Assembly (NCBI RefSeq): GCF_003334305.1
Contig: NZ_QOWS01000006.1
Source: Escherichia coli
Lineage (GTDB): Bacteria > Pseudomonadota > Gammaproteobacteria > Enterobacterales > Enterobacteriaceae
Strand: one strand, 5' to 3'
Length of the DNA stretch: 64,000 bases
Shown: positions 13,827-15,161 of the stretch, piece after piece
How positions within the stretch are numbered: the stretch's first letter is position 1
Layout: every line of letters starts with the position of its first letter
Notes under the pieces: generated by a model
Told to the model about the DNA's origin: nothing
The model's input: the letters and a program-made list of their open reading frames with translations, nothing else
Database searches by the model: none
Position numbers and translations under genes: made by a program

Positions 13827-15161
13827 TTACTGGCATATATATGTTTTGTTTTCATCGATAACGTGTTGAAAAGTAATAGTACAGAATAAGTTCTGTTCAT
13901 CATTGAGAGCAACTTTTATTCCAGTGGGAATTTCATCTACGCGAATAAAAAGGCGACTACCCTGGCCAACGACTCCAATATTATTTTCCTGGAGATCCAG
14001 TACGTCATAGCCAAAGGTTAATGGCGAACCATCGGGACGCAGTGCCTGTATATACCAGGGCTTACGTTGGTCAGTTGTAAACTGCACATAAGAAACTGCT
14101 CCACGGTAAGGTGCAATAATTTGACGATTGCCCTGCAATTCTGTTTCACTTTCACTGTTTGCTATATCAAGTACCAGATGGTTTTCACGATGAGGTATTA
14201 TCAGGTCGTAAACAACCTGGCCTTTGCTGTTTGTTCGATTGTATTTTTGTCCATTAATATGTGCACCTTCTAACCCAGGCGCATCCAGAATTGCAAATGT
14301 ATCGGATAACTGGTTAGTGATATTAATACCACCGGGCTAGACAACTAATCCACTACTAATACTTCCACCACTTTGCCAGGCGTTTTTAGAATGACTATAG
14401 CTGCCATCTATTATGGCGATGGGAGTTCTCCAGCTTAAATTCGTACCAAGCGAGGTATCATTATTTTGTTGTTGCTGATTAACATATATACCATAATTTA
14501 ACTGATCATGTTCACCGGCTATGCCAGTAATTCCAGTATTGTTGGAGGAATAGCCATCTTTGGAAAATGAGGTCGAATTCGATAAGTTAATTTGGTGACG
14601 TGTTTTGGCAATATCATCCCCCCAGTAGAAAGGAATGGAGATAAACAGATTAAAACGCTCCTCTTCTTTATTATTTTCATCATAAGATTGGCTGGCAGAG
14701 AAAGTATAACTAATGTGTTGCCAGTTATTGGAGTAACTGAATTGGTAATCTTTAGCATTTCCACTTCGCCCCCAGTAATTCCGCCAAAGCGCACTTAATG
14801 ATACATTTCCCAGATTATTGGATAAAGGTTGCATAATATTAGCAGAAAGGCTATTTTTTCTGCCAATATCATAAAAATCATCATAATCACTCTGATGATA
14901 GTGTTTATCATTTTCGTAAAGATGGTCGCTGAATGTCCTGTAATCCTGCGAAGCATAACGCCAGGCGGCCACGCTAAATCGAGTGGCTGTTTGTACTAGA
15001 TATTTATTATAGGCGACCTGATAGCTCGTACCTTCGTGTCTGGTATCATTATTTAACTTACTACTCGATCGGGCAGCGTAAAAAGAGATGGCACCCAGCG
15101 GTGTATTCCAACCATTTCCCAGAGTTATAGCATTATAGTTATCGGATAAAATCGTACCCGA
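13827..15161 (-). pseudogene. Fimbrial usher (chaperone-usher pathway), C-terminal ~445 codons only, with an in-frame amber codon
   Basis: Minus-strand frame is open from 15161 to 13827 apart from a TAG at 14337..14339 (read codon by codon). The translation is usher-like (…NAITLGNGWNTPLGAISFYAARS…, …YRGAVSYVQFTTDQRKPWYIQALRPDG…). The N-terminal half of a typical ~850-aa usher is missing and the frame ends at a stop at 15162..15164. Confidence 0.65.

Follow-up and report, generated by a model that had tools for sequence, protein, structure and literature searches.

What is left of a fimbrial operon when a usher-like reading frame carries an amber codon, and could such a locus still assemble a pilus? 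The question is raised by positions 13827 to 15161 of a 64,000-nucleotide stretch of Escherichia coli DNA (RefSeq assembly GCF_003334305.1, contig NZ_QOWS01000006.1), hereafter the window, in which an initial annotation had described a decayed fimbrial usher gene on the minus strand. We find that this interval is almost certainly the nonfunctional rest of the usher gene of a Yeh-like gamma-4 chaperone-usher operon, situated in a horizontally acquired island of low GC content. The island appears to be O-island 1 (OI-1) of E. coli O157:H7, the locus that Wurpel et al. 2013 class as Yeh-like, gamma-4. Through one deletion of 2,443 bp, codon 374 of the usher gene has come to adjoin sequence that lay 44 bp upstream of the major subunit gene. 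The usher pseudogene was already known, with the same annotation at the same coordinates in RefSeq as processed by the Prokaryotic Genome Annotation Pipeline (PGAP), and the cryptic fimbrial locus to which it belongs has been catalogued.

An open frame encodes the C-terminal part of an usher

The reading frame is defined by the following features.

13827..15158, minus strand: usher pseudogene fragment, residues 374-816 of an 816-aa usher (translation, alignment, Pfam/NCBIfam and PGAP)
13827..13829, minus strand: terminal stop of the usher remnant, TAA
14337..14339, minus strand (plus-strand CTA): in-frame amber, TGG to TAG at Trp647 (codon comparison with intact alleles)
15162..15164, minus strand: stop closing the frame upstream, TAA

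Retranslation of the minus strand from 15161 to 13827 gave 445 codons with one internal stop, which agrees with the frame originally described as open save for the TAG at 14337..14339. At the local base composition, about 28.8 stops (roughly 29) would be expected by chance in 445 codons (Poisson P(<=1) ~9e-12). None of 2,000 shuffles had fewer than 12 stops, and the remaining five frames of the interval contain 15 to 53 stops each. Usher homology stops at 15158, in the deletion junction at 15156-15158, and not at 15161; the codon at 15159-15161 (Ser) is former intergenic sequence from upstream of the lost major subunit gene. The estimate of about 445 remaining usher codons was thus correct in describing a C-terminal fragment and slightly off at its boundary, the true count being 443 codons and a stop, with residues 374-816 of an original 816 retained.

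The usher-like character proposed for the product is upheld by Pfam Usher, PapC_C and NCBIfam PRK15217, all of which match. On the fragment, Usher (PF00577) gave an E value of 1.2e-82 and covered only model positions 201-549 of 549, and PapC_C (PF13953) matched residues 370-431 with an E value of 3.6e-9. PRK15217, the best NCBIfam model for the usher, matched model positions 376-826 of 826 with an E value of 3.7e-232; the score of 773 bits falls under the 933-bit cut-off because the fragment sequence is partial. The homology comparison, which might have shown the fragment to be something other than an usher, placed it at the C-terminal 443 of 816 codons.

The intact orthologous usher carries PapC_N at residues 24-159, Usher at 176-733 (model positions 2-549) and PapC_C at 743-804. 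Pfam did not find PapC_N (PF13954) on the fragment, which begins at residue 374, and usher residues 1-373 used as a tblastn query gave no match in the 64-kb window. The remnant is without a start codon, a signal peptide and the N-terminal chaperone-subunit binding domain; of the beta-barrel only the C-terminal part is left, together with the C-terminal domains, and its translocation domain is incomplete. The boundaries that we take to be those of the FimD plug map on the alignment to approximately residues 248-331, so that the plug would also be lost. These boundaries were reportedly published by Phan et al. in 2011.

Trp647 is encoded by TGG in intact usher alleles. The amber at this position falls where the barrel/translocation domain ends, directly before the C-terminal domains, and the PapC_C of the remnant is encoded 3′ of it, so it is separated from the barrel part. 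The remnant and the intact usher of strain 405 align without gaps and differ at 32 codons. The W647 amber is a minor, late lesion without functional effect, since it struck a gene already deprived of its start, signal peptide and N-terminal domain and of some 40% of the barrel.

A 2,443-bp deletion removed the chaperone gene, the major subunit gene and the start of the usher gene

A complete four-gene operon lies between nhaR and espX1 in strain 405 (locus L003) and in the Shiga toxin-producing E. coli OkiPb01687 (locus L004). In minus-strand order, the intact locus consists of espX1, the major subunit gene (177 aa), the chaperone gene (227 aa), the usher gene (816 aa), a gene for a 319-aa fimbrial family protein, and nhaR. 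BLAST aligned window positions 12701-15158 with L003 7703-10160, and window positions 15156-17400 with L003 12603-14846; the two collinear blocks overlap by 3 bp. Two features of the window follow from this comparison.

15156..15158, no strand assigned: deletion junction with 3-bp ACC microhomology (BLAST and base-by-base comparison with L003)
15159..15412, minus strand: residual intergenic sequence of 254 bp, from the espX1 stop to the junction (collinear with L003 12604-12858)

The junction reads ...TCGTACC/CGATTATG... (slash, point of joining), and ACC is present at both ends of the deleted segment in the intact locus. Lost with these 2,443 bp were the chaperone gene and the major subunit gene in their entirety, the first 373 codons of the usher gene, and 44 bp preceding the major subunit gene. 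Comparison with an intact orthologous locus, which had been suggested as a check, therefore revealed a clean deletion as well as a TGG at codon 647. Over the retained part, nucleotide identity to L003 is 97.5% across 2,459 bp, and the usher is 96% identical in amino acid sequence to the intact protein over residues 366-816 (tblastn).

Neither the chaperone nor the major subunit was found anywhere in the 64-kb window by tblastn with the intact proteins (E <= 1); the sole match for these queries was a chance-level stretch of 37 aa in carA. The initial annotation had stated that no chaperone or major pilin gene is adjacent. This stands for both genes throughout the window, but a fourth operon gene (12856..13814), itself a pseudogene, does adjoin the remnant. 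The conclusion that the operon is decayed and cannot assemble a pilus is likewise sustained, the chaperone, the major subunit and the usher N terminus all being absent from the window.

The operon promoter presumably lay in this residual intergenic sequence. Scans for promoters and terminators near the remnant were at background level, with a promoter-like count of 13 versus 9.7 +/- 2.9 in shuffled sequence. A terminator-like hairpin with a T-rich tract at 15156-15175 (minus strand) spans the junction and was therefore made by the deletion; the scan overall was at shuffle background. Within the residual upstream region, an 8-bp indel, TTTGAAAA, at 15235-15242 is present in the window and in strain TUM12355 and absent from strains DS26-1 and O104:H4.

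The fourth operon gene and the chromosomal setting

The remaining operon gene in the window is also inactivated.

12856..13814, minus strand: fourth operon gene, now a pseudogene, with 319 codons in its intact form and annotated as "fimbrial family protein" (alignment to intact alleles and PGAP)

The product is presumed to be a tip subunit. The gene has a -1 frameshift at codon 47, where a run of six A residues has become five (plus-strand T-run 13671-13675), and a second lesion, CAG to TAG, at codon 214 (13174-13176). The intact 319-aa product matched no Pfam or NCBIfam family and no PDB sequence, and a single-sequence AlphaFold model of it was unusable (predicted local distance difference test score, 32). 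In O157:H7 SS17 a +A insertion at another A-run, close to codon 99, puts the fourth gene out of frame; the published open reading frames (ORFs) z0020 and z0021 (fmrA) are probably the two halves of this frameshifted O157:H7 gene.

The window is chromosomal DNA of E. coli, and its first 50,000 bases are base-for-base identical to positions 713679-763678 of NZ_CP028767.1, from E. coli A7 (orangutan feces). The gene order is yaaA ... dnaK, dnaJ, mokC, nhaA, nhaR, the remnant locus, espX1, rpsT, yaaY, ribF, ileS and onward. Between nhaR and espX1/rpsT, the island has a GC content of 35% versus 51.5% for the window, and the same nhaR and espX1-rpsT flanks surround the intact operon in 405, OkiPb01687 and O157:H7 SS17. 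In A7, RefSeq/PGAP labels 13827-15158 (minus strand) as [quoted passage not shown] and 12856-13814 (minus strand) as "fimbrial family protein; frameshifted; internal stop".

Directly next to the remnant, espX1 (15413-16834, minus strand, 473 aa, 31% GC), which encodes a type III secretion effector, is intact here; it is frameshifted in O104:H4 2011C-3493. The A7 annotation assigns window positions 1-37 to the end of an IS621 (IS110-like) transposase gene, immediately upstream of yaaA.

Decay of the locus is graded across E. coli

We counted each lesion in 5,426 complete E. coli genomes using exact 33-mers centered on it, such that a central mismatch abolishes the megablast seed. These counts are lower bounds, as any further single-nucleotide polymorphism (SNP) inside the 33-mer removes the match. 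The locus is present in about 70% of the complete genomes, and 1,640 have no match at all to window positions 13000-16000. The junction 33-mer occurs in 2,412 genomes (44%), and the deleted 2.4-kb segment is retained to at least 80% in 1,203. At codon 647, TAG was found in 13 genomes and TGG in 2,532; A7, identical to the window, is one of the 13, leaving 12 that are independent. The five-A frameshift allele of the fourth gene was matched in 803 genomes and the codon-214 amber in two, A7 and a pig isolate. Haplotypes bearing the junction are 96.5 to 100% identical to the window, pointing to an event that is old or that was spread by recombination.

Individual strains carry different subsets of these lesions. 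O104:H4 2011C-3493 has the deletion only. In TUM12355, which differs from the window at two positions in 2.6 kb, the TAG and the frameshift accompany the deletion; to this set of lesions the window adds the codon-214 amber. In DS26-1 the deletion and the TAG occur next to a downstream gene that is intact and belongs to another haplotype, which makes the region a mosaic. The lesions follow a strictly nested series (deletion, TAG, frameshift, second amber) only in part, given DS26-1 and the occurrence of the five-A allele in 803 genomes versus 13 for the TAG. Homopolymer slippage in the fourth gene may recur.

In other lineages the locus has been damaged differently. The usher gene is cut at differing points by the insertion sequence IS1, with loss of espX1 (locus L002, 10862-11559; locus L005, 7520-8217), and these truncations are independent routes to loss of the locus. 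O157:H7 SS17 (locus L007, 1696-5119) has an usher with a different amber, at W634. Strain 23CRST011 (NZ_AP045770.1; locus L006, 5506-7956) has a full-length usher with the W647 amber, and IS3 splits its major subunit gene (L006 8702-10496). Common descent of this amber with that of the window is unsupported, since SNPs 29 to 75 bp on either side differ; more probably the G-to-A change recurred or was carried over on a very short conversion tract.

Discussion

Illegitimate recombination, or slippage during replication, at the 3-bp ACC microhomology is the probable origin of the deletion. The event appears to be old, because the same junction is found in 44% of complete genomes on haplotypes differing by up to about 3.5%. 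A G-to-A transition, TGG to TAG at Trp647, came later, and the fourth gene would then have gained its homopolymer frameshift and its own amber; these point mutations probably represent neutral decay of a gene that was already dead. With the start, the signal peptide, the N-terminal domain, the plug, the first part of the barrel, the chaperone and the major pilin all lost, the locus should make nothing functional and should assemble no pilus of the Yeh-like type. Half a barrel that lacks a signal peptide should be neither exported nor folded, and it would have no chaperone or pilin to work on.

Nothing contradicts the reading of the usher frame as a pseudogene. Some observations nevertheless weigh against parts of this account. 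The region upstream of the lost major subunit gene is retained, and transcription of the remnant is possible. Substitutions private to this haplotype are mostly synonymous (11, versus six nonsynonymous and the stop), so the ratio itself gives no sign of relaxed selection; most of the divergence therefore predates the loss of function or arrived by recombination. Moreover, a single origin of the deletion would follow from the identity of the junction, not from a phylogeny.

Other explanations of the interrupted frame can be set against a decayed usher gene. Were the TAG or the truncation an error of sequencing or assembly in a gene that is really intact, the identity of the window to one public assembly, A7, would be of little help, for that record alone is not independent confirmation. 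Yet the TAG 33-mer recurs in the 12 other complete genomes, from varied hosts and countries, the junction 33-mer is found in all 2,412 genomes noted above, and the PGAP annotations of DS26-1 and TUM12355 independently record these lesions too, so that an artifact has a negligible chance of being the explanation. Hardly any probability attaches, either, to truncation by insertion of an espX1 segment into an intact usher gene. This gene is very AT-rich (31% GC) and directly adjoins the remnant, as such an insertion would have it, but espX1 occupies this place, past the major subunit gene, in strains with the complete operon too, and what lies on the espX1 side of the junction is collinear with the sequence that precedes the major subunit gene in those strains. 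With both flanks collinear with the intact locus, insertion is ruled out as the cause, in favor of an internal deletion.

A remnant that is still in use, by way of an internal start or the retained upstream region giving a truncated protein or RNA with a new role, is very improbable. The 254 bp of former operon upstream region have been kept, and internal ORFs exist mechanically, a GTG ORF at 14337-14972 (211 aa) and an ORF at 13827-14138 (103 aa). These ORFs have no signal peptide, however, and half a beta-barrel is unable to fold into an outer-membrane pore; the promoter-like scan did not exceed background. Lesions also keep accumulating in this lineage (the W647 amber and two in the next gene), and other lineages have undergone further IS1 deletion of the locus or have no match to 13000-16000 (the 1,640 genomes above).

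Whether the Yeh-like locus was lost by selection rather than by neutral decay is a separate matter. Selection strikes us as unlikely. Independent inactivations do accumulate across lineages: the 2,443-bp deletion (44%), the IS1 truncations, IS3 in the major subunit gene and the W634 amber of SS17, and further the W647 amber on two haplotypes (one with a full-length usher) and frameshifts at two A-runs of the fourth gene. Expression of the pilus, or of the motility-repressing FmrA, could be costly in many niches, such that knock-outs are repeatedly favored.

The remnant is one more example of the many cryptic or decayed chaperone-usher operons in E. coli. For annotation and typing, the junction, found in 44% of complete genomes, and the W647 amber, rarer at 13 genomes, are clean lineage markers, and the state of the locus predicts a strain unable to make Yeh-like pili. 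Gene-presence screens that score an "usher" or "fimbrial" match at this locus would over-call function. The number of independent inactivations across E. coli could, though improbably, reflect selection for loss instead of drift.

Comparison with known loci and ushers

The locus has been recorded under several names. The ushers Z0022/ECs0022/ECIAI1_0021 and others are listed as "Yeh-like", in the gamma-4 clade, by Wurpel et al. 2013 (PMC3559732, Table S2); the main text of that paper does not discuss the locus, which is entered in Table S2 only. The same survey found 79 of 449 chromosomal chaperone-usher operons disrupted. O-island 1 of EDL933 comprises z0020-z0025, a "putative fimbrial cluster" (PMC9387321, PMC10877973), in which z0021 (fmrA) represses motility according to the summaries of Allison et al. 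2012 given in these two reviews. Gene order, the tag numbers, the description of OI-1 and the SS17 locus together suggest that the O157 locus may be the one tagged Z0022/ECs0022. For the chaperone and the major subunit of the intact locus, the best NCBIfam models are StcB and YehD, consistent with the "Yeh-like" label.

A "Yeh-like (Yhl)" pilus, yhlA-D, was described in 2026 with the adhesin YhlD (PDB 8V9V; Trp142 in the receptor-binding domain), which is almost restricted to phylogroup E (PMC12778044). We considered and rejected the fourth gene as a candidate for YhlD: the intact 319-aa product (gene at L003 7857-8816) has no Trp after the signal peptide and, as noted, no PDB sequence match. 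Either 8V9V is missing from the PDB copy searched, or "Yhl" is another locus, and yhl names are not used here. There may be a nomenclature mismatch between papers, YhlD being found nearly in phylogroup E only versus a Yeh-like locus in about 70% of genomes.

The remnant occupies the same position as the OI-1/Yeh-like locus (nhaR, fimbrial genes, espX1, rpsT), and O157:H7 SS17 and the other intact loci show 97 to 98% nucleotide identity to the window over the retained part. Relative to the intact Yeh-like locus, the window has lost the chaperone and major subunit genes and the first 373 usher codons, and it adds the usher W647 amber and the fourth-gene frameshift and amber. From the A7 pseudogene AOY58_RS03380 (NZ_CP028767.1, 727505-728836) the remnant does not differ at all, in sequence or coordinates.

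Among ushers of known structure, both FimD (3RFZ/6E14, E about 1e-112) and PapC (7LHG, E 8e-56) align end to end with the intact orthologue, which has the same domain order, PapC_N, Usher, PapC_C. Of the pore constructs, FimD 3OHN covers usher residues 137-651 in the alignment and PapC 2VQI residues 139-643. Unlike FimD and PapC, the remnant has no N-terminal domain, and its barrel is missing the first part; its C-terminal domains lie beyond the amber.

Decayed ushers are also found in E. coli K-12, where ydeT (b1505) is a C-terminal usher fragment of the F9/yde operon and the ushers yqiG, yfcU and yhcD are disrupted as well. In the table of Wurpel et al. (PMC3559732), b1505 stands in the F9 column. 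Like the remnant, ydeT and the other K-12 decayed ushers represent cryptic operons with a truncated or interrupted usher; they differ from it in operon, in clade and in the lesions they carry.
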